A DNA stretch of 10,885 nucleotides from Candidatus Heimdallarchaeota archaeon (GCA_016839945.1 JAEOTE010000043.1:1-10885), one strand, 5' to 3'; positions 141 to 10,885 are shown, counted from the first letter of the stretch. Numbers and translations are program-made. The notes: generated by a model from the sequence alone, not told the origin.

Positions 141-158
141 TCGCACAAAATTTATAAT
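141..158 (+). promoter_or_regulatory. Putative archaeal BRE+TATA promoter of cassette 1
   Basis: TCGCACAAAA followed by TTTATAAT (151..158). The same 10-mer plus CTTATATT recurs at 4391..4408, at exactly the same distance from the paralogous gene. Confidence 0.65.
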
Positions 159-177
159 TCGAATTAACTAAACGTAA

Positions 178-735
178 TTGATTCTCTTGCGATATATAGA
201 AGCTAATTGGAATGGTTTTGAAATTGACTCAAGTGAATTTGCAGTTTCGCTTCAACCTGTTGATGTAGTAAAAACAATAAAAACTTTTTCAAGTTCTTCA
301 TTTATTGAAAAAAGCGATGAGAAATATATCTCATCGATGAGTAAATTCTATGAAATTATGGAGATCACTAAATTTGACAAACCAGACTTCCTTGAACAGG
401 AAATAGAAGGAGAAAAAATCGATGATTTTGTAAATCGTATTAAGGAAGATGAGAGTTCTTATAGACAAAGATTAGCGAATAGTGATGTTATTAAGCTAGC
501 TGAAGTGTTTAAGAAAATTAAGGAACAGCTACCACATCTTATTCATGATTTAATTCCTTGCACAGTGACATTCATAAGAAAAAATGATGATCCAGATGGA
601 ACCAATCAATATACTATCTCTCTTTCAGGAGAACCTTATACATATTGGATTAATTGGTATAATCAAGATGAGTTTTTTGCGGTTCTGAACAGTATAAAAA
701 AGAAATGTGGAATTGGATGGAGTTCTCATTTATAA
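178..735 (+). CDS. Hypothetical protein A1 (~182-185 aa), small partner of cassette 1, paralog of 4428..4970; true start may be TTG at 187
   Basis: Open frame. It aligns with A2 at LRYIxANWxGxEIDSSEF, KTIxxF..SSS, PHLI, FxRK, NxY, GxPxT and WY. Several differences in the conserved 5' block are synonymous, which supports coding. No family recognised. Confidence 0.85.
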   Translation: MILLRYIEANWNGFEIDSSEFAVSLQPVDVVKTIKTFSSSSFIEKSDEKYISSMSKFYEIMEITKFDKPDFLEQEIEGEKIDDFVNRIKEDESSYRQRLANSDVIKLAEVFKKIKEQLPHLIHDLIPCTVTFIRKNDDPDGTNQYTISLSGEPYTYWINWYNQDEFFAVLNSIKKKCGIGWSSHL

Positions 736-854
736 ATTAATTTTGGAGGAATGATTGCATCTCATCAGAAAAATCTAAGATAACAGAATTTACAGAGACG
801 GTAGAAAATTCTATTAATTTAGAATCTTATTTTCCAAGAATTAATGATAATTTC

Positions 855-3800
855 TTGAGTGATTTTTGTTTTAATACAGCAGATCAAGTGAAATGGGACC
901 ATGGAAGTACGGGATCAGGTTTTCACTTTAAAAAGGGAGGAGATTATCCTATAATTCAAAATGGAAGAGATAGTGGGGTTTCCTTTCCTTATCGATTACC
1001 AAAAACCATACGCGATGAAAGAATAATAAAGTTAGCAGAAGAAACTGATATTTCACTATCCGAGTATGGAAAATACTTACTAACAATTCTAATTAAAATA
1101 ATTAGAACCTCTAGAACTAATCTTAGTGATATTAGCTTAAATATGTATTATGAACCCGCAATGATAATTTTAAACAATTTTCTAGGACCAATTGAAGAGA
1201 TTTCTAAACAATTGAAGTATCCTGTAAAGAAGGAATTAGTAGATATACAATTGTTTTTTGAGAAATGCTATGAAGAATTTAAAAATAATCTAATTAATAA
1301 TCTCTATGTTAGCAATCATCTATACGCAAAAGAGCCCTATTACTTTGATTCTGTAGATATTTTTGCAGTTTTAGTTTTAGTTTATTGGAGTATTATAGTA
1401 GATTCAGAGAATTCGAAGAAATATAATCTAGAGTTACAAAGTTTCCTAAAAGAGTATTTCACTCCTCCTGAAAGATTTTCTAGTAATATCAATTTAACAA
1501 ACAAATCTAAATTCCGCTTTATTTTTGAAAGGGAAATGACTAATGCAGATTTCTATTTTCCTTCATTAAAATTTGATGATATTGATGATATTACAACTAA
1601 AGAGAAAGAAAAGATCTCTGAACTTCTTATTGAGGAATTCAACAAAACTAAAGATGAAAATAGAAAGATAGTAATTATAGAAAAACTTGGAGAACAAACA
1701 TATGAAAAATACCAAGATTTTCTTATTAAATGTTTCAAAAAGGAAACAGAGCGATTACAGAAATTTGTTGTGAGAGAATTTCGAAAAATAGACGATTTGA
1801 GTAATTCGACAAATAACTATTTTCATGATATTTTAGAAGGAGAAGATAGCATTCAAAAGAATTTGATTTTAGAAATTATTGAGAATAAATCTATTTCTTT
1901 TCAAGAATCTGAACAAGAAATTAATTATTTATTTACTGAGAAAAGATATGATGAACTCCTAAAATTCGAAGATAGCAATGAATTATTGGAGAAAATTATG
2001 CAAATTTTTACGGAATTAGAAATAGATAATATAACTGAGGCTCAAGAAATCAATGAACTTTCTAAAGTAGTTTCTAGTATCGTTCACAAAGATAAACACC
2101 AATTTTTAGTTAAGTTAGTGAATATTGGAAACTTCTACGCTAAAAGAGCTGCAATTGAAGCATTAGGTAACAGTGATACAGAAGAATCAGCATCATTACT
2201 GATTTCCATCTTTGAAAATGGTTCAGAAAATGAAACTTCTGAAATTGGAGATTCAGATTCAAAGATTCTTGCTACACTTGCTCTAGGGAAATTAAAAAAT
2301 GAAGAAGCAATTGATAAATTATTGAAAATTCTGGGAGATTCTGATGAACTAAAATCTTTCAACTGCAAAGAAGGATGGAATATTAAGCCATCACTATTGC
2401 AAAATTTCTATGATAATAAAAGGTTACCATACAAAGATGAATTTAAAAATGAATATAATGCAATAATAATCGCTCTTGTATCTCTTCAAGATAAGAAGAT
2501 TACTGATAAACTCCTTTCTTTCATGTCCTCCTCTACTGATGAGAAGAATAAGATCGATATTTTAGCTAATTTATCAGGAGTAATAGATGAAGAAAGTTTA
2601 CTTAAGATAATTGATTCTGAACTGAAATCCAAAGATAACGATTATGGATATAAACTCAAAATAAGTGAGTTTCTAAGCACACTAGAAACAGAGAAAGCAA
2701 TTGAATATTCTATTGATATACTTGAAAATCATTCAACATTATACAAACTTATACTTAATAAAGAAGATGATCATCCTTATACTGATGTACCTGCTTATAA
2801 GAAAATGATCAATGCTATAATCAAATTTCTCGAAAGCCAAAAGAGTACTTATAATAAAATACTTGATGAATTCAATTCTTATTTGTATTTATATTATGAT
2901 GAGCGAGGATATAATAAACCTATTCATTATTATAGGATACAAAGACATCCATTAAAATCTAAAGTAGATAATATACAAACTAAAGAGATTTTAGAAACTA
3001 TTGTTTTGCTTGGGATGCTCTATTCAAATGAAAATTTCGATAATAGGGATCACGATAGTATTCGTAAACAGGTAAAGGAATTTGCTGTATATTTACGTGA
3101 TAAACCACCTCTTAGATCAATAATGCAGAATTTTGGACATGCACAATCCTTCCGCAAAAAGCTTATTACTAACAAATTAACCTCAAGAGAAGGTCCTCGA
3201 TCTAAATCTGCTGATTCTGATTTAATAGTTGAATGTTTATTACGTTTAACAAATGACTATAATCTGTTCATAAGAAGGCAAGCTATTAAAGCTATAGGGG
3301 AGGTAGAGAATGAAGAATATTTCAAGCAAATAACTGATAGATTATTGGAGTTAATTAATACTGAAAAAGACTATTTCATTCACTTTGATGTCCATTTGTC
3401 ATTAATCACTTTCTTTGTTCCATCTTTGAGAGGAGAAGTAACAAATGATGATGAAGCTCGAAAAATAGTGGTTAATGAAGTAGATGGAGAGTATATTACA
3501 GTTGATAGATTATGGGATTGTGATGATAAAAACCAATTTAGTAAAATCATTACTAAATTATTAGAAAGGAAAATAAAGAGTAAGAAAGATGGTTCAGTTT
3601 CAACAACTAAACCAAAAACTATTGATGAAATACCAGGACAAAAGAAGTTCTTAACTGAACAAATAAAAGAACAAATGGTTGAACTAACAAATCTACCTAA
3701 TTTGAAGAATTATGAATTTAAGCTTTCTCCTAAGGAATTATATGAATCTGAGATGAAAATGGCATATCAATCACGTGATTTAGATGAAAAAAGAAGAAAA

Positions 3801-4334
3801 CAAATCTTAGAAGATTTAGTATCAATAACTCATGACAAATCTGCTTCTTCACAGCTTAGGATACTAGCTATGAATATTGTATGTAATTTGAATGCAAGGT
3901 TCATAAATGATGAAGTTAAGAAAAAACTAATTTTTCCATTATTAAATGAAGAAGATTTACTTGTTAAAGATGTAGCTATTTTTAATCTTGTGGGAAAAGA
4001 ATTTCGTAAAGAGGATATTTCTGAATTTGAAGATGACTTATTAGCTCTGAAAGAGGAGTTAGTTGAGTCGTTTTACAGGTACATTGAAATGGACAAATAT
4101 CCAGAGAGTTCTAAATATGTGTCTAATGATGTGCTTTTTGAATTATATAATACGTTTGGTCGTCGTGAAAAATTCGATGTTATATCATCTCCTCATGGTT
4201 TGTTAATATATCTCATTGATCAAATAAAAGAAGAAGTAAAAGATGTTGTCTATAAAGGTTTGAAGAGTGAGAATCCAAATATTGTAAAATTTGCTAAAGA
4301 AGCAATAGAACAAATCTATGAAAGTGGATCTTAA
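855..4334 (+). CDS. Large protein B1: uncharacterised N-terminal domain (shared with B2) plus extended HEAT/PBS-lyase-like alpha-solenoid; real start probably upstream of 855 (frame open from 741)
   Basis: 1159-aa ORF with HEAT-like motifs AKRAAIEALGN, ATLALGKLKNEEAIDKLLKIL, LTNDYNLFIRRQAIKAIGEV and GLKSENPNIVKFAKEAIEQI. The N-terminal region (~918..1530) aligns with B2 (~5108..5725). Confidence 0.88.
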   Translation: MSDFCFNTADQVKWDHGSTGSGFHFKKGGDYPIIQNGRDSGVSFPYRLPKTIRDERIIKLAEETDISLSEYGKYLLTILIKIIRTSRTNLSDISLNMYYEPAMIILNNFLGPIEEISKQLKYPVKKELVDIQLFFEKCYEEFKNNLINNLYVSNHLYAKEPYYFDSVDIFAVLVLVYWSIIVDSENSKKYNLELQSFLKEYFTPPERFSSNINLTNKSKFRFIFEREMTNADFYFPSLKFDDIDDITTKEKEKISELLIEEFNKTKDENRKIVIIEKLGEQTYEKYQDFLIKCFKKETERLQKFVVREFRKIDDLSNSTNNYFHDILEGEDSIQKNLILEIIENKSISFQESEQEINYLFTEKRYDELLKFEDSNELLEKIMQIFTELEIDNITEAQEINELSKVVSSIVHKDKHQFLVKLVNIGNFYAKRAAIEALGNSDTEESASLLISIFENGSENETSEIGDSDSKILATLALGKLKNEEAIDKLLKILGDSDELKSFNCKEGWNIKPSLLQNFYDNKRLPYKDEFKNEYNAIIIALVSLQDKKITDKLLSFMSSSTDEKNKIDILANLSGVIDEESLLKIIDSELKSKDNDYGYKLKISEFLSTLETEKAIEYSIDILENHSTLYKLILNKEDDHPYTDVPAYKKMINAIIKFLESQKSTYNKILDEFNSYLYLYYDERGYNKPIHYYRIQRHPLKSKVDNIQTKEILETIVLLGMLYSNENFDNRDHDSIRKQVKEFAVYLRDKPPLRSIMQNFGHAQSFRKKLITNKLTSREGPRSKSADSDLIVECLLRLTNDYNLFIRRQAIKAIGEVENEEYFKQITDRLLELINTEKDYFIHFDVHLSLITFFVPSLRGEVTNDDEARKIVVNEVDGEYITVDRLWDCDDKNQFSKIITKLLERKIKSKKDGSVSTTKPKTIDEIPGQKKFLTEQIKEQMVELTNLPNLKNYEFKLSPKELYESEMKMAYQSRDLDEKRRKQILEDLVSITHDKSASSQLRILAMNIVCNLNARFINDEVKKKLIFPLLNEEDLLVKDVAIFNLVGKEFRKEDISEFEDDLLALKEELVESFYRYIEMDKYPESSKYVSNDVLFELYNTFGRREKFDVISSPHGLLIYLIDQIKEEVKDVVYKGLKSENPNIVKFAKEAIEQIYESGS

Positions 4335-4365
4335 TTCACTTGGAGGTAAAGTGTAATTAATAACA

Positions 4366-4382
4366 AGCAGTAAAATACTGCT
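4366..4382. promoter_or_regulatory. Perfect 7-bp inverted repeat AGCAGTA-aaa-TACTGCT just upstream of the cassette 2 BRE/TATA (possible operator or hairpin)
   Basis: The palindrome is directly visible and ends 8 nt before TCGCACAAAA. Its function is inferred. Confidence 0.4.
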
Positions 4383-4390
4383 ATCAATAA

Positions 4391-4408
4391 TCGCACAAAA
4401 CTTATATT
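4391..4408 (+). promoter_or_regulatory. Putative archaeal BRE+TATA promoter of cassette 2
   Basis: TCGCACAAAA-CTTATATT is a copy of 141..158 at offset 4250, the same offset as between the A1 and A2 starts. Confidence 0.65.
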
Positions 4409-4427
4409 TCTTATAAATTAGTTAGAG

Positions 4428-4970
4428 TTGATTCTCTTGCGATATATTAAAGCCAATTGGAAAGGGTATGAAATTGATTCAAGTGAGTTCTTTGCTGAAA
4501 TTCTCTCAGAGAATACATGCAAAACTATACAAGCATTCCTTGATTCTTCTTCTATCGATGAGAAATTTAGAACTGCAAATATTATTTCAAGCTTGAATTC
4601 TGCTTATGAAATTGCTATATCAGAGGATAAAGATTTAGTAAGTTCCTTGAAAATAAATAATGTCAGTTTTAGCAAAATAATAGATAAATATAATTCAATA
4701 AATGAAAGTGATATCAAGAAAGACAATCTTATAGAACTTTGTCAAATTGTTCAAATCTTAGTTCAGAATTTTCCCCATCTTATTTTTGAATTCAATGATA
4801 GCTTAATTCGATTTGAAAGAAAAGGAGCTGAAGAATCGAATAATTATGAAATGACAATTATAGGTGTTCCAGTTACTTTCATGGTTTCTTGGTATGAAAC
4901 AGAAGCATGGGAAGGGGAGCTTAGAAGATTGAGATATCAAGGAAGATTTCGCTACAATTCCTGGTTATGA
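4428..4970 (+). CDS. Hypothetical protein A2 (~177-180 aa), small partner of cassette 2, paralog of 178..735; true start may be TTG at 4437
   Basis: Open frame with clear homology to A1. Its stop overlaps the next ORF (ATGA at 4967..4970). Confidence 0.85.
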   Translation: MILLRYIKANWKGYEIDSSEFFAEILSENTCKTIQAFLDSSSIDEKFRTANIISSLNSAYEIAISEDKDLVSSLKINNVSFSKIIDKYNSINESDIKKDNLIELCQIVQILVQNFPHLIFEFNDSLIRFERKGAEESNNYEMTIIGVPVTFMVSWYETEAWEGELRRLRYQGRFRYNSWL

Positions 4971-7141
4971 TGGTGTTGATAAGAATGAAGTTAATAGAAG
5001 AGATTATTTCAAAAATTAATGAGACGAATTTGGGAATTGTCCCAACTAAAAGACTACAAAAGTTTCTAACTAGTTTCAAGGAAGGAGAAAGATACAATAT
5101 ACTCATGGGTTTCCATTTCAAGAAAGGAAAAGAAGCTCTTGGAAATACTCGACCAGATTATTCCAGTGGAATTGATAAATTTATTACATCTGATAGAAGA
5201 AAAACAGAGTATGTTATCAAAGAGTTATTTGTGAATAATGATTTAAGATATAATTTGGAAAATTATACTTCAGTTATTCTATCAGCTTTGAAGTTTGCAT
5301 ATGAAAGATCTCACAGAAGCTTGACAAGTTTTACTTTTAATATCTATTATGAACCTGGTTTTATCCTAGGTTGGAGACTTTTAGATGTTCCAAAAGAATT
5401 CAAAATCCAATTAAATAAGGATATTTTATTGCTTCTAGAAGACATTCAGACATTCTATACTTTTTGTTATAAACAGCTAGAAGAATCATTAAGAAAACTA
5501 CTTCCCTCATCTATCTGGTTGGATAATAAGCTTGAACCTTTTTATTATGATTCTATCAATATCTTTGTAGCATTGATGATAACATACTGGAATCTGATTC
5601 AGAAACCTGAAAACAAGGAAGAATATATCCTCCTCCTAAATGAATTCTTAACAGATTTCTTAATAGTTAAGAAGAAACAAGATTTCAATGTATATCTAAA
5701 AAGCAAATTCAAACAAATTATACTAAATGAGATAGAAGGAAGCTCAATCAAGTTTGTAGACGTAAGAGAAAGACAGAAGGAAGAAACTGAGGTTGTTAAG
5801 AAGACATCTATAATACTTGAAGATAAAGCAGAAATTTCAGAATCTAAAGGAAAGATATATCTCACTGGAAGCGTGAAAGGTAGAAATAAAGCCAGTATTA
5901 GATTGCTGTTGGAAAAAAAGGGTTTTATTTGGGGAGCTTCAGTATGGAGTAAAGTTGATCTTGTAGTTACTGGTAATAATCCTGGTAAAAAGGCATTAGA
6001 GGATGCTGAAAGATTGAACCTTCCAGTTATAAGTTGGGAGGAATTTTCGAAGAAACATGATGTTGAAAGTCCAAAAGAAGAATATTTTGTGGCTGAAAAC
6101 AGAGGAAAAGTATACGTTACTGGAAAAATAGAAAGAAAGAATAAAGCTGAAGTTCAACAAATTGTTAAACAAATGGGATTCACTTGGTCACCAAGTATCA
6201 ATAACAGATTAACTCATTTAGTATATGGCAAAAACCCAGGTCAAAAGAAAATTGATTTAGCAGAACGATATGGAATTGATTTAATCAAATGGGAGGATTT
6301 TATTGAGAAATACAAAGTTGAAATAAAGACTAAAAGGATAATTGTCTTGGATGATAGAACTGGTGAAGATACTAGTTCTCCTTTAGGAAAAGAAGATATC
6401 ATCGAACTGACACAAAACAAAAAATGGGAAGTTAGATATGAAGCTTATAAAGAACTTATTAATTTTAATGAAGATGTATTAGAGATTTTATCCAAAGCTC
6501 TTGCTGATAAATCTGAAAAAATAAGAATGATGGCATTAGAAGAATTAAGAACACATGTTTCAGAAGAAGAAATGTTTGAAATTCTGACAAAAGCTCTTGC
6601 TGATAAATCTAGGGAAATTAGAATAATAGCATTAGAGGAATTGAAAAAACGAGATCCAGAAAAAGTTCCTTATTTGTTGTATGAACTAACCAAACATGAT
6701 GATAAAAGAGTAGGAGTAAATACTTTTTGGATTTATAATAGAGAGCAATATAAGGATAAGGTTAAGCATCTTGTTGAATTACTAGATCTTGAAAGCAATG
6801 TATCTGTTCAGCAAATGGCATTCGCTGAGCTTGTTAGAATTTCTCCCCCAAATCTAGATGAAATACTAGTTAAAGGCTTGTATATCCAGCAATTAAGTGC
6901 AGTTAGAAAATCATTAGAATTATTGATAGAAAGAGAACATCCAAAATTAGCAGAATTACTTCTCGATGGAATATTTACAACTTTCTTTGGTTACAAATTT
7001 TTTCCTTATCTTGAATCAATAGGATTTCATAAAGAGATTTTAGAAAAAGCTATTGATATATACGATTCTGCAGATAAGACTGTTAAAGGAAGAATAAAAG
7101 CAAAATTTCCTGATATAGAAAGAAGAATCTCAAAGAATTAG
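4967..7141 (+). CDS. Protein B2: uncharacterised N-terminal domain + two tandem BRCT domains (NAD-ligase/RFC1 type) + HEAT repeats; alternative start ATG at 4985
   Basis: BRCT1 (~5846..6050) reads KGKIYLTG...NKASIRLLLEKKG...SVWSKVDLVVTGNNPGKKALEDAERLNLPVISWEEF. BRCT2 (~6101..6310) reads RGKVYVTG...THLVYGKNPGQKKIDLAERYGIDLIKWEDF. Both follow the LigA C-terminal BRCT pattern. The HEAT motif ALADKSxxIRxxALEEL occurs twice. Confidence 0.9.
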   Translation: MMVLIRMKLIEEIISKINETNLGIVPTKRLQKFLTSFKEGERYNILMGFHFKKGKEALGNTRPDYSSGIDKFITSDRRKTEYVIKELFVNNDLRYNLENYTSVILSALKFAYERSHRSLTSFTFNIYYEPGFILGWRLLDVPKEFKIQLNKDILLLLEDIQTFYTFCYKQLEESLRKLLPSSIWLDNKLEPFYYDSINIFVALMITYWNLIQKPENKEEYILLLNEFLTDFLIVKKKQDFNVYLKSKFKQIILNEIEGSSIKFVDVRERQKEETEVVKKTSIILEDKAEISESKGKIYLTGSVKGRNKASIRLLLEKKGFIWGASVWSKVDLVVTGNNPGKKALEDAERLNLPVISWEEFSKKHDVESPKEEYFVAENRGKVYVTGKIERKNKAEVQQIVKQMGFTWSPSINNRLTHLVYGKNPGQKKIDLAERYGIDLIKWEDFIEKYKVEIKTKRIIVLDDRTGEDTSSPLGKEDIIELTQNKKWEVRYEAYKELINFNEDVLEILSKALADKSEKIRMMALEELRTHVSEEEMFEILTKALADKSREIRIIALEELKKRDPEKVPYLLYELTKHDDKRVGVNTFWIYNREQYKDKVKHLVELLDLESNVSVQQMAFAELVRISPPNLDEILVKGLYIQQLSAVRKSLELLIEREHPKLAELLLDGIFTTFFGYKFFPYLESIGFHKEILEKAIDIYDSADKTVKGRIKAKFPDIERRISKN
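6494..6650 (+). repeat. Intragenic tandem duplication of one 32-aa HEAT unit (96-nt period)
   Basis: Exact 21-mer AAAGCTCTTGCTGATAAATCT at 6494..6514 and 6590..6610, each followed by similar ...AGAAT...GCATTAGAxGAATT sequence. Confidence 0.85.
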
Positions 7142-7282
7142 TTTAATGCTAAACAAATCACTTGTTTGTGAAACTTTTAAATCTTTCCTGATAGGCTTGA
7201 GTTAAGAAACTCTCAAAGAAAACTCATTATTGTGAAAAATATAATAAATATTTAATAAAAACTCTAGAGATTTTTTCTCATA

Positions 7283-7305
7283 AGATTTATATTACTTGTA
7301 AATCT
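7283..7305 (+). promoter_or_regulatory. Putative TATA box (TTTATATT, 7286..7293) of gene C, overlapped by inverted repeat AGATTTA-N9-TAAATCT
   Basis: The TATA start is 36 nt before ATG 7322. The 7-bp inverted-repeat arms are at 7283..7289 and 7299..7305. Confidence 0.45.
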
Positions 7306-7321
7306 CTATTTCGTAGATTTT

Positions 7322-8974
7322 ATGGAAACTAAAGATTCATCTATTAATCCAAATAATAAAGGTAAAATTTATGTTACAGGATTAATCCAAGGATTTAACA
7401 AAGCTGAAATTAGATACATCGTTGAACAACTAGGTTTTCAATGGTCTACAACAATTTCAAGTTTGACTCTTTTGATCATAGGTAAAAATCCAGGTCAAAA
7501 TAAGATAGAAACTGCTGATAGATTAAACATTAGAAAGCTTAGCTGGGATGAATTTGCTAAGGAATATAATTTTGAAGTTAAAAGAGAAGCTAAGCAAGAG
7601 ATAGTTCAAGATAACAATATACCTCCTCAAATTGCAGAATTAATTACTAAAACAAAAAACAAAAAAAGTCAGGCAAGACTTATAGCTTATACAAATCTAA
7701 TTGAGATTGAAGAAAACTATGTAACAGAGATTTTAGTTAAAGCTCTTACTGATGAGTTAGGAACAATAAGAAAACGAGCAATGAAGGAATTAAGAAAACG
7801 AATTCCTGAAAAATTACCATATCTACTTTTTGAACTGTTTGATCACCACAATGACTATGTTGTAAAAGATTCGGTTAATGCTTTGATAAAAGAGAAATAT
7901 CCCGATAAAATTGAACATCTCACAAAAGCATTAGAAATAAAGAAAAGAGGTTTTAGTGCTAACAAAGTTTTTGAAGAGCTTCTTAAGCTCTCTCCTCCTA
8001 ATCTTGACGAAATACTAGTTAAAACTGTTAAAGCTAATATATTTAAAGCGAGTGAAAAAGCATTTGAACTACTAAAGGAAAGGAAATATCCTAAACTAGA
8101 AGAAATAGCTCTAGGAGCAATATTCAATACTTTTAGCTCTAAATATCATAATTATCTAGAATCAAAGGGATATCAGAAACATATTCTAGAAAAAGCACTC
8201 AAAGAATATGATTCCGCTGATAAATCTATAAAATACATGATTATAGGAAAACTTGCAAAATATCACTATGATGAAAGAGCAATGAATCTTTTGGAAAGAG
8301 AATCCAATTCAAGTGATAAAAGTATAAAAAGTCATGCACAACATAATAAAGAACGAGCTGTAATATTCAAAAAAATAGATCCTTACTTAAAATTAATCCA
8401 AAGTGTAAAGAATGAAGATAAGATAGAGGGATATACACAGATTGTAAAAGAATTAGGTGAAGATTCATTTAATTATGTAAAAAATGGAATTAGAACCGAA
8501 GAAACAAATGTAAGAATTGCAATAATTAAACTTCTTGCTCCTTATAAGAATAAATATGATGTCTCTTCCTTCCTGAAACGATTTGTTAACGATCGTGACG
8601 GAAAAGTTCGAGAAAGTGTTAGAAGAATATTATATTCAAGAGATAAAGAAGTTGAAGAAAAAGTAGACAAAGCTGTAAAACTAATTGAAGATTTAAGAAG
8701 TTTAACTGAATCAACCAAAACTGAAGATTCTGAAATCAAAAAGAAGAAGACTATAATTGAATTGGGTAAAATGATGGGTAAGAAATCAGTAGATTCACTT
8801 GTTAAATTGCTAAAAGACGAAAATGCAACAATAAGAGGAAACACAGCTCGAGCTTTGGGAGAGATAGGAGATACTAAAGCTATCAAACCATTAGAAGAAC
8901 TATTGGAAACTGAAAAAAGCGATTATGTTAAACAAGAAGTAGAAGAAGCATTACAACAACTTAGGAAAAAGTAG
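7322..8974 (+). CDS. Protein C: N-terminal BRCT domain + HEAT-repeat solenoid; paralog of the C-terminal half of B2
   Basis: BRCT reads KGKIYVTG...NKAEIRYIVEQLGFQWS...GKNPGQNKIETADRLNIRKLSWDEF. It shares PEKxPYLLxEL, SPPNLDEILVK, PKLxE, YLESxG..K.ILEKA and YDSADK with B2. A canonical HEAT is at the C-terminus (LVKLLKDENATIRGNTARALGEIGDTKAIKPLEELL). Confidence 0.92.
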   Translation: METKDSSINPNNKGKIYVTGLIQGFNKAEIRYIVEQLGFQWSTTISSLTLLIIGKNPGQNKIETADRLNIRKLSWDEFAKEYNFEVKREAKQEIVQDNNIPPQIAELITKTKNKKSQARLIAYTNLIEIEENYVTEILVKALTDELGTIRKRAMKELRKRIPEKLPYLLFELFDHHNDYVVKDSVNALIKEKYPDKIEHLTKALEIKKRGFSANKVFEELLKLSPPNLDEILVKTVKANIFKASEKAFELLKERKYPKLEEIALGAIFNTFSSKYHNYLESKGYQKHILEKALKEYDSADKSIKYMIIGKLAKYHYDERAMNLLERESNSSDKSIKSHAQHNKERAVIFKKIDPYLKLIQSVKNEDKIEGYTQIVKELGEDSFNYVKNGIRTEETNVRIAIIKLLAPYKNKYDVSSFLKRFVNDRDGKVRESVRRILYSRDKEVEEKVDKAVKLIEDLRSLTESTKTEDSEIKKKKTIIELGKMMGKKSVDSLVKLLKDENATIRGNTARALGEIGDTKAIKPLEELLETEKSDYVKQEVEEALQQLRKK

Positions 8975-9177: not shown

Positions 9178-9495
9178 ATGAACTTTGAAGAAATTAAGAT
9201 TCCTGGAGACATAGTTGCTGTTGAAGGAGAAAAGAAAATGCATTCAGTTTTTGTGTTTGCATTAAGCACTTGTATGTGGTGTAAGAAAGGTAAACAATGG
9301 CTTAAAGACAATGGTTATACATATAGATATGTAGATGTTGATTTACTTCCTCTTGATGAAAAACGAGAACTGAAAAGTGATTTACGAGAAGTTTTTAATG
9401 TTTTATCTATCCGTTATCCGTTTTTAGTTATTGATGGGATGAATTTTTATTCTGGATTTAATATTGACAATTGGAAAGAAATGTTTTCGGAATAG
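9178..9495 (+). CDS. Glutaredoxin/NrdH-like redoxin (CxxC)
   Basis: VFALSTCMWCKKGKQWL...YRYVDVD...YPFLVIDG...GF shows a thioredoxin-fold CxxC, the cis-Pro motif and the C-terminal GF typical of Grx/NrdH proteins. Confidence 0.92.
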   Translation: MNFEEIKIPGDIVAVEGEKKMHSVFVFALSTCMWCKKGKQWLKDNGYTYRYVDVDLLPLDEKRELKSDLREVFNVLSIRYPFLVIDGMNFYSGFNIDNWKEMFSE

Positions 9496-9504
9496 TTGAT
9501 CGTT

Positions 9505-9837
9505 ATGAACAAAACCAAAACAAAAGAAGATGTCATTAAATATGTTCAAGGTGTATCTATAAAGAGAGGATGGAAGCTTAATCCTGAAACTGATTCTACA
9601 TTAGATATGTTAGTTGAAGGTTTAAGAGATTATTTCAACATGGTTGGATATTTTAATTGTCCTTGTAGAGAATCGCAAGAAGATATGAAATTAGATAGAG
9701 ATATTATGTGTCCTTGTGATTATGCACCTCTGGATATAGAGGAGTATGGTTACTGCTACTGTTCTCTATACTTTGATCCAAATTTCGATTTCTCAAAATT
9801 TGTGGAAATGATACCAGAAAGAAGATCACTTGAATAG
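9505..9837 (+). CDS. Ferredoxin:thioredoxin (disulfide/glutaredoxin) reductase catalytic subunit homolog, [4Fe-4S] + active-site disulfide; the track start is TTG 9496
   Basis: Has the diagnostic CPCR...CPC...CYC triad (GYFNCPCR, IMCPCDY, GYCYCSLY) and LNP...LVEGL upstream. It lies directly after a redoxin gene. Confidence 0.93.
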   Translation: MNKTKTKEDVIKYVQGVSIKRGWKLNPETDSTLDMLVEGLRDYFNMVGYFNCPCRESQEDMKLDRDIMCPCDYAPLDIEEYGYCYCSLYFDPNFDFSKFVEMIPERRSLE

Positions 9838-9891
9838 TTTTATTGTAGAGTTAGATAGAAAAACTACTTTACGTTTTACAGAAAAAACAAG

Positions 9892-9918
9892 GAAAAAGAA
9901 AAAGAAAAAGAAAAAAAA
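9892..9918 (-). terminator. Oligo-T archaeal-type terminator / (GAAAAA)x4 simple repeat downstream of the pmbA-like gene
   Basis: The minus strand reads T8-C-T5-C-T5-C-T5-C, starting 2 nt after the stop codon at 9921..9923, in a convergent intergenic region. Confidence 0.6.
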
Positions 9919-9920
9919 TC

Positions 9921-10885
9921 CTAACTAGTAATAGTGTGTTTTGGAAAGGTTATTGTTGGTGAATCAACTGGCCAGAATGTCATTTCTCTATCTGAACCAA
10001 TAAACATAGTGTTCTTTAATGATTCAATGTAATTTCCTGCAATACTAACAGCTTTCAGAGGATGAGAAATCTCTCCTTTTTCAATCAAGAATGATTCATT
10101 CGAGTTCACACTGAAGTCACCAGTTATAGGATTGGATGAAACAAACAAACCTATAGGTTGTCCTGTTATCAAAATACCTCTATCTAGTTCTGCAACTTGT
10201 TCATCAAGAGTTTTGTTTACATTATCTACTAGGATTTTGTTTGGACCTATTGCAGGAGAAATTTCAAAAGGAACCCCTCCTCCAAATATTCCTCCTCCTC
10301 TTTGGCAATTTCCTGTTGTTTCTTTTCCAGCTGCATGAGCGAACATCCGATTAAACAAGAAGTTCTTCAATATGCCTTTTTCAATTAATGTTGTACTTCT
10401 TTTAGGAGTTCCTTCTGCATCGATTGCTTGAGTAGCAGAATATTCCGGTTTTTGACCTTCGTCTATTAAGGTTAAATCTTTACTAGCTACTTCTTGATCA
10501 AGACTGTCTTTCCATGGATTACTTTGTTCAACATATGCGGATCCTAACATTCGTATTCTTAATGCATCAGTTATAAAACCTCCAACCTCTCTAGGTCCCC
10601 AAATTGTTGGAAGTACTTCAGTACCTTCAAATTTTTTAGCACCTAAACCTTTGAGAGCATTAGCAACAGCATTTTTTCCTATTCCTTCTAAGCTAGATAT
10701 TTCTCTTCTTGCTATGAAATCAAATGCAGATTTTCTGTCTCCTTCTCCCATTACAACCGTTGATGCATTTCCACTATAAGTGGTTAATAAAGATGAAGCT
10801 AAACATCCTTCTGTAGTAGCTATCGCATATCCTTGCCATGTGCAACCTAAACCCATTGAAAACGAAACAATTCTTTGATCTGTTC
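9921..10885 (-). CDS. pmbA: TldD/PmbA family protein, PmbA/TldE-like (non-catalytic type); 5'-truncated by the window edge
   Basis: Family motifs VASKDLTLIDEG, IDAEGTP...LIEKGILKNFL, TTGNCQR, NPITGDFS, LIEKGEI.HPLK..SIAGN are present. There is no HExxH at the expected place (FITDAL). The frame stays open upstream of ATG 10856 to the edge (...TDQRIVSFSM). Confidence 0.9.
   Translation of the reverse strand, partial: TDQRIVSFSMGLGCTWQGYAIATTEGCLASSLLTTYSGNASTVVMGEGDRKSAFDFIARREISSLEGIGKNAVANALKGLGAKKFEGTEVLPTIWGPREVGGFITDALRIRMLGSAYVEQSNPWKDSLDQEVASKDLTLIDEGQKPEYSATQAIDAEGTPKRSTTLIEKGILKNFLFNRMFAHAAGKETTGNCQRGGGIFGGGVPFEISPAIGPNKILVDNVNKTLDEQVAELDRGILITGQPIGLFVSSNPITGDFSVNSNESFLIEKGEISHPLKAVSIAGNYIESLKNTMFIGSDREMTFWPVDSPTITFPKHTITS

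Follow-up and report, generated by a model that had tools for sequence, protein, structure and literature searches.

Two successive gene pairs on an archaeal contig raise the question of whether a small protein (A) and the N-terminal domain of the large protein encoded next to it (B-N) form an obligate pair, to which exchangeable C-terminal parts are attached. Such a modular system was proposed in a preliminary description of this DNA. The window, i.e., the whole stretch of 10,885 nucleotides that was analyzed, is the entire source contig C10 of a genome of 3.0 Mb (32% GC, 88% complete), which judging from the names of its homologs (Ca. Heimdallarchaeaceae/Heimdallarchaeota) is that of a member of the Heimdallarchaeia.

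The tandem duplication of the unit consisting of promoter, A and B was confirmed by ORF calls and by a 99-nt repeat that spans the promoter and the A start (141-239 versus 4391-4489, 80% identical). A1 and A2 are indeed paralogs over their full length (32% identity end to end, E = 1e-24). B1 and B2 have only the N-domain in common, as had been proposed: residues 22 to 254 of B1 align with residues 48 to 277 of B2 (30% identity, E = 7e-22), and the other segments gave E values above 2. The features of the locus are listed in Table 1.

Table 1. Features of the A-B array and its flank (window coordinates)
Feature	Position	Strand	Remarks
A1 promoter/leader	141..186	+	BRE-like stretch; TATA-like box 36 nt before TTG 187
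A1 ORF	178-735	+	Probable TTG start 187, giving 187..735, 182 aa; small acidic alpha/beta protein
WxG[FY]E[IV]DSSE motif of A1	208..237	+	Conserved in A homologs
B1	855..4334	+	1159 aa; B-N ~918-1616, then ~900 aa helical tail with HEAT repeats
Candidate terminator hairpin	4366..4382	.	Between B1 and the A2 promoter; hairpin count not above chance
A2 promoter/leader	4391..4436	+	TATA-like hexamer; copy of the 99-nt repeat
A2 ORF	4428-4970	+	Probable TTG start 4437, giving 4437..4970, 177 aa
A2 FPxLxxEF segment	4767..4805	+	aa 114-126; core of the predicted B-N interface; retained in fusions
B2	4967-7141	+	ORF of 724 aa; probable ATG start 4985
B2 N-domain (B-N)	4985..5794	+	~270 aa, all-helical; gene coupled to the A2 stop
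B2 predicted A interface	~5486-5518 and 5666-5725	+	From the complex model; the second is the NxYLKSKF helix
B2 BRCT 1	5852..6046	+	LigA-type, Trp signature
B2 BRCT 2	6104..6301	+	LigA-type
B2 HEAT-repeat tail	6401..7141	+	Homologous to the first half of C
C	7322-8974	+	550 aa; BRCT 7358-7555 and HEAT repeats; cargo-only gene without B-N
Glutaredoxin and ferredoxin-thioredoxin reductase beta (flank, outside the system)	9178..9837	+	Pfam

The TTG starts of the A genes are considered probable since homologs begin there and the database product has 182 aa. In both A1 and A2, a TATA-like hexamer was found 36 nt before the second TTG. Such a hexamer was present at -42 to -28 in 14 of 18 A upstream regions, compared to 2.5 in shuffles, with a pattern picked after inspection of the sequences. 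C possesses its own TATA-like box. The start of B1 is uncertain, as the frame is open for 38 codons upstream of TTG 855 (from ~741) and an SD-like GGAGG (within 736-860) is followed by an ATG and a TTG that are both out of frame; a single-base indel (assembly error or inactivation) or a rare start codon is possible. The upstream open frame showed no significant homology to the N terminus of a relative (E = 0.06). At the left end of the contig, a divergent ORF starts on the minus strand (2-79) and runs off the contig; it may be continued by the HEAT gene that opens contig C80 at its 5' end. A 27-nt inverted repeat (8695-8721/9060-9086, 93% complementary) has one arm in C and the other in the intergenic region after C, and the ordinary flank (9178-10885) also contains a PmbA/TldE-type gene on the minus strand.

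The tails were then compared. Pfam domains were detected in B2 (two BRCT and HEAT_2), C (BRCT and HEAT_2) and B1 (HEAT_2/HEAT_PBS). Residues 12 to 311 of C match residues 378 to 714 of B2, i.e., the second BRCT and the HEAT part (41% identity, E = 1e-66), and no B-N match was found in C. The proposed BRCT-BRCT-HEAT order of B2 and the presence of the same cargo in C thus held. For B1, a continuous HEAT solenoid of ~900 aa had been described; the long tail and its HEAT repeats were recovered, but not the continuity, since the HEAT matches are patchy (~aa 410 to 495 and 790 to 830, none in the last 207 aa). Across the family, the tails measure 200 to 1250 aa and consist of HEAT repeats, BRCT-HEAT, BRCT only or non-Pfam sequence, in B proteins of 465 aa (BRCT only) up to 1727 aa (HEAT), in agreement with swappable tails. 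BRCT domains were found in only 3 of 11 B proteins, some B proteins being cut by contig ends.

The cargo BRCTs match PF00533, like the C-terminal BRCT of the NAD-dependent DNA ligase LigA from Heimdallarchaeia, to which they are closest in identity (mean, 34 to 41% to LigA BRCTs of the genus versus 23 to 29% to other Asgard BRCTs). Moreover, cargo and Heimdallarchaeial LigA BRCTs share a Trp where most BRCTs have a small residue, and in a tree built with no non-Asgard outgroup and no outside root they grouped together (support, 100/99) against 22 other Asgard BRCTs. Judged by sequence, the cargo BRCTs are of the ligase type rather than established eukaryote-like signalling pairs. Unlike in LigA, they are joined to B-N and HEAT repeats, are sometimes in tandem, and lack the ligase core. 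Since LigA is the widespread form, the cargo BRCT was presumably captured from it.

We then investigated the two constant domains. Searches of Pfam, NCBIfam, PHROGs, PADLOC and PDB sequences gave no credible family match for A or for B-N, and the two are not homologous to one another. No model of PADLOC-DB 2.0 matched more than one of 32 A sequences, B and C matched solely through generic HEAT or BRCT stretches, and the core proteins matched no curated defence model. Literature searches retrieved no description of the family. The AF2 model of A2 (pLDDT 91, pTM 0.82) shows a sheet with a helical insert; B2-N was modelled as all-helical (pLDDT 77, pTM 0.83). In fold searches, the best Z score for A was 6.1 (a helical fragment), none reached 8, and atlas TM scores did not exceed 0.39; an ESM Atlas feature search gave no usable match, and no longin or TRADD-N chain was among the structural matches listed. 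For B-N, the best Z score was 6.3 and Foldseek returned no matches in PDB or BFVD. Thus, two domains that had gone unrecognized in the preliminary description match no known family or solved fold. The structural neighbor of A with the widest coverage in the model comparison is a contact-dependent growth inhibition (CDI) immunity protein (6d7y_B; Z 5.2, rmsd 3.6, 116 residues aligned, below the noise level of Z 8), and one A member weakly matches Imm7 (E = 0.046); this resemblance is a weak lead only.

A1 is acidic (pI 4.9). The first 19 residues of A2 are disordered in the model and hold the motif WxG[FY]E[IV]DSSE, whose W, G, E, D, S, S and E are invariant in 25/25 unfused full-length A proteins. 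A reading of this motif as a bacterial GEF mimic, based on its WxxxE spacing, was rejected because GEF mimics are helical bundles. Among 11 B-N sequences, a single Pro is invariant, and no polar or catalytic-type residue is.

Do A and B-N belong together? In two congeneric genomes, G123 (1730 aa) and G199 (776 aa), we found A and B-N in one ORF, and both fusion proteins are on record in several sources. The two fusions are intact and 51% identical, although the N-terminal motif is lost from both, with no trace of WxGFEIDSSE upstream in any frame. All 11 distinct B-N copies have A adjacent or fused (upstream in eight, downstream in one, fused in two); five of these loci were retrieved by searching 83 genomes with B-N first (5/5 with A), and the six others were reached via A and carry that ascertainment bias. 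In the complex model, A2:B2-N obtained a score of 0.73, compared to 0.13 for the best control, with at least 78% contact agreement between runs and a partner pLDDT of at least 81. The mark for this score was reached by 58 of 80 solved pairs and 2 of 110 mismatched pairs, counts that are rough because the analysis' own alignments were used. The modelled interface joins residues 61 to 66, 114 to 126 and 143 to 150 of A to residues 171 to 181 and 231 to 250 of B-N. P116, L118 and F129 of this interface are conserved in 93% of A proteins, and A interface residues are also kept in the fusions. The N-terminal motif lies outside the confident contacts predicted with B-N, but may make others. Natural fusions and the predicted complex thus support the proposed physical pairing, and A and B-N very probably form a physical module.

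The claim that the pair is obligate was not supported. Indeed, 11 A copies have no adjacent B-N, whereas B-N always occurs with A in the loci read, so that the dependence is one-way. The solitary copies include a clade of three at a conserved locus (support, 100/98) under purifying selection (omega 0.18), and the protein P0013, in which A is fused directly to HEAT repeats and any B-N remnant was not significant. The others comprise tandem A copies before a HEAT gene and copies with a HEAT, TPR or Ras gene as neighbor. For most of the solo A copies, a B-N is present at another place in the genome or island (G000, GCA_016839875.1, L040); G111 (88% complete) is the only genome with A in which B-N was undetected. 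The split enzyme that had also been suggested is disfavored, since B-N has no invariant polar residue and the fusions lack the invariant motif of A.

The family is narrowly distributed. Word-index and pattern scans missed the family; relatives of A, 30 in all, were found only by a full HMM scan that covered 1.84 billion proteins. Among 83 genomes of the class, A was present in four and B-N in three, all of one genus, and a 301-genome sample of the phylum gave no additional credible match. A match in G107 was spurious (an ABC permease ORF) and was gone in a later search. The source genome carries a third pair on contig C80 (A3 and the HEAT-tailed B3), and contig C112 carries an unpaired A4. Both domains are under purifying selection (omega 0.13 for A and 0.25 for B-N). 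In one pair, dS was 1.8 for A versus 0.39 for B-N, and distances of A and B-N across split pairs correlated weakly (Mantel r 0.35, p 0.07), which together points to an exchange of partners rather than to a strictly cognate immunity. In another locus, a 94-aa antisense A fragment (L025 4006-4290, minus strand) directly follows an intact A, and the two share a short inverted DNA match.

The array occupies a variable site. Upstream of the glutaredoxin gene, 19/20 congeners have an O-methyltransferase and/or LigA (LigA in 14/20); the source genome has C, B2, A2, B1 and A1 there instead, B2 and C on the same strand as the glutaredoxin gene, and neither the LigA core nor O-methyltransferase nor CinA was found in its assembly (G000). 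These three usually neighbor the glutaredoxin gene in the genus, so that either gene loss or a gap in the assembly may account for this. The array has a GC content of 29.1% versus 32.2%, within the lowest 1.4% of 8-kb windows. Next to the third pair lies a Type II DNA methyltransferase gene, and since the sequences that border C10 and C80 adjoin each other in the genome G283, the three pairs probably form one array beside this gene, an arrangement taken from G283 synteny, the contig ends having no overlap. Three metagenomic loci share the same neighbors (a radical SAM gene, a methyltransferase or an O-methyltransferase). Ras-family genes are directly adjacent in three loci (nominal P 0.002 at a base rate of 1.2% in the genome, from a post hoc comparison of loci that are not independent). 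In none of the loci read did we see genes for secretion or delivery.

Further genes were noted in these loci. In three loci, a conserved protein of 202 to 205 aa is encoded beside a Type II methyltransferase (L001 6393-7010, L066 10143-10751, L040 591-1199); it has no Pfam or PADLOC family and is a candidate restriction nuclease or regulator. The fused gene of G123 is flanked on one side by the gene for an HNH-repeat protein and on the other by additional HEAT genes (L017 4636-6972, 12356-16000), one HEAT gene of this locus having a weak TrmB-like N-terminal match. Elsewhere, a TnpB/IS605-type gene is located immediately upstream of an A-B pair (L024 8787-9980) and a second one downstream.

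What, then, could the module do? We tentatively propose that A is an immunity-like inhibitor that restrains B-N, with the HEAT/BRCT tails as sensors. A and B-N, as a heterodimeric core or one fused chain, would be part of a variable, accessory array of genes in Heimdallarchaeia. A would dock via its FPxLxxEF segment onto two B-N helices, as modelled, and may keep B-N inactive or soluble. HEAT and ligase-derived BRCT tails would recognize a trigger, e.g., a foreign protein or broken DNA ends; this would release or rearrange A and allow B-N to act, probably without catalysis. The invariant motif of A may contact a third conserved partner or serve as a release handle. A is most likely inhibitory because no B-N lacks A, whereas A copies persist on their own. 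The inhibitor-effector-sensor arrangement also fits the orphan and tandem small genes, the patchiness, the variable site beside a methyltransferase, and the constant core with variable repeat tails; a defence role is thus suggested by genomic context. Against the inhibitor reading we count the lack of catalytic-type residues in B-N, the absence of delivery genes from the loci read and the weak cognate coupling; moreover, a most conserved motif outside the confident interface would be unusual for a simple antitoxin. An extension that we regard as unlikely would make these proteins Asgard-specific immune receptors, with A:B-N as a hitherto unknown guard-effector core, shuffled solenoid sensors and the ligase BRCT as decoy or DNA-break sensor, paralleling the integrated-domain immune receptors of eukaryotes.

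The main rival, a nontoxic adaptor-scaffold, is possible but doubtful: A would bind the solenoid N-domain, its motif would recruit a host partner, perhaps a small GTPase, and the tails would select cargo or site. Consistent with this, the invariant motif is predicted to be disordered alone and free of the confident B-N interface, A sits beside or is fused to HEAT proteins without B-N (P0013, L038, L039), Ras genes are direct neighbors in three loci (see the nominal, post hoc P value above), and B-N lacks catalytic residues. However, a core trafficking scaffold would not be expected to be as patchy as this (4/83 genomes) or to lie in an island, and the fusions stayed intact without the motif. 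The sigma subunit of adaptins is a small alpha/beta subunit that binds the N-terminal part of an alpha-solenoid HEAT-type trunk, and A would similarly sit on the N-domain of the large, HEAT-type B. In its predicted topology, however, A seems to differ from the longin order, and its distribution is patchy and island-like.

That A merely completes the B-N fold, as one protein split in two, with chaperone-like assistance and no on/off regulation, is quite unlikely. Solo A copies would then serve B partners elsewhere in the genome, and the natural fusions, the confident modelled interface and the B-N found in the genome or island of most solo A copies would be accounted for; yet both halves are predicted to fold alone (see the pLDDT values above), G111 has A and no detected B-N, and the motif kept in every split form is left unexplained. 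Very unlikely is a DNA-end processing accessory, in which the array replaced the LigA locus, BRCT-HEAT proteins mark nicks and A:B-N is a repair module: B2 and C hold the LigA position upstream of the glutaredoxin gene, the LigA core was not found in the assembly and the BRCTs group with those of LigA, but few B proteins have a BRCT, G123 and G199 carry both LigA and the module, and LigA may lie in a gap, since the source assembly is incomplete.

We also compared the module to known systems, of which the EACC1-caspase system and the toxin-immunity pairs are nearest to it in layout. CapRel is a fused toxin-antitoxin sensor. Similarly, split and fused versions of one pair exist here, and the attached module could sense a trigger; unlike in CapRel-type proteins, no RelA/SpoT-type or other enzyme domain is present, with no sequence or fold match. 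In the two-gene EACC1-caspase conflict system (System 4 of Kaur et al. 2020, PMC7159879), as here, a small constant 5' gene precedes a gene for a constant N-domain with a variable C terminus that includes repeats. In contrast, EACC1 is a single transmembrane helix, whereas A, according to its model, is a soluble alpha/beta domain without Pfam match; the constant domain there is a caspase or cNMP cyclase, whereas B-N is all-helical without catalytic residues; and here HEAT and BRCT tails are the only ones seen, in a family that is restricted to Heimdallarchaeia. Polymorphic toxin and CDI toxin-immunity pairs, for which orphan immunity genes were described (PMC3482391), share with the module the one-way dependence, the orphan small genes, the tandem arrays, the acidic small partner and, according to the model, the binding of the small protein to a domain of the large one. 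The order of elements in A resembles the first nine elements of CdiI of PABL017 (PDB 6D7Y, PMC9086364) if the helical insert is ignored, at the Z of 5.2 mentioned above, which is below the noise level. Unlike in these systems, the domain bound by A would be constant, N-terminal and helical rather than a variable C-terminal toxin (BECR), and no secretion apparatus was seen in the loci read. A:B-N is a real, undescribed, lineage-restricted module of two domains without a family, in a known architectural style.

Sensing or scaffolding by solenoid proteins is a hallmark of eukaryotes, of which Heimdallarchaeia are some of the nearest relatives. It is a rare family, whose functional readings are drawn from sequence, context and model; the gains are two domains that match neither a family nor a solved fold, an interface predicted down to named residues, and natural split and fused forms. 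If defensive, it would be an archaeal immune module that current catalogues lack; if a scaffold, it would be a small-subunit/solenoid complex that arose independently of adaptins. In either case, the BRCT cargo offers a traceable, presumed capture of a host ligase domain. Stand-alone BRCT proteins of ~80 to 100 aa were also observed in another Asgard family (L115; genomes of family f14).
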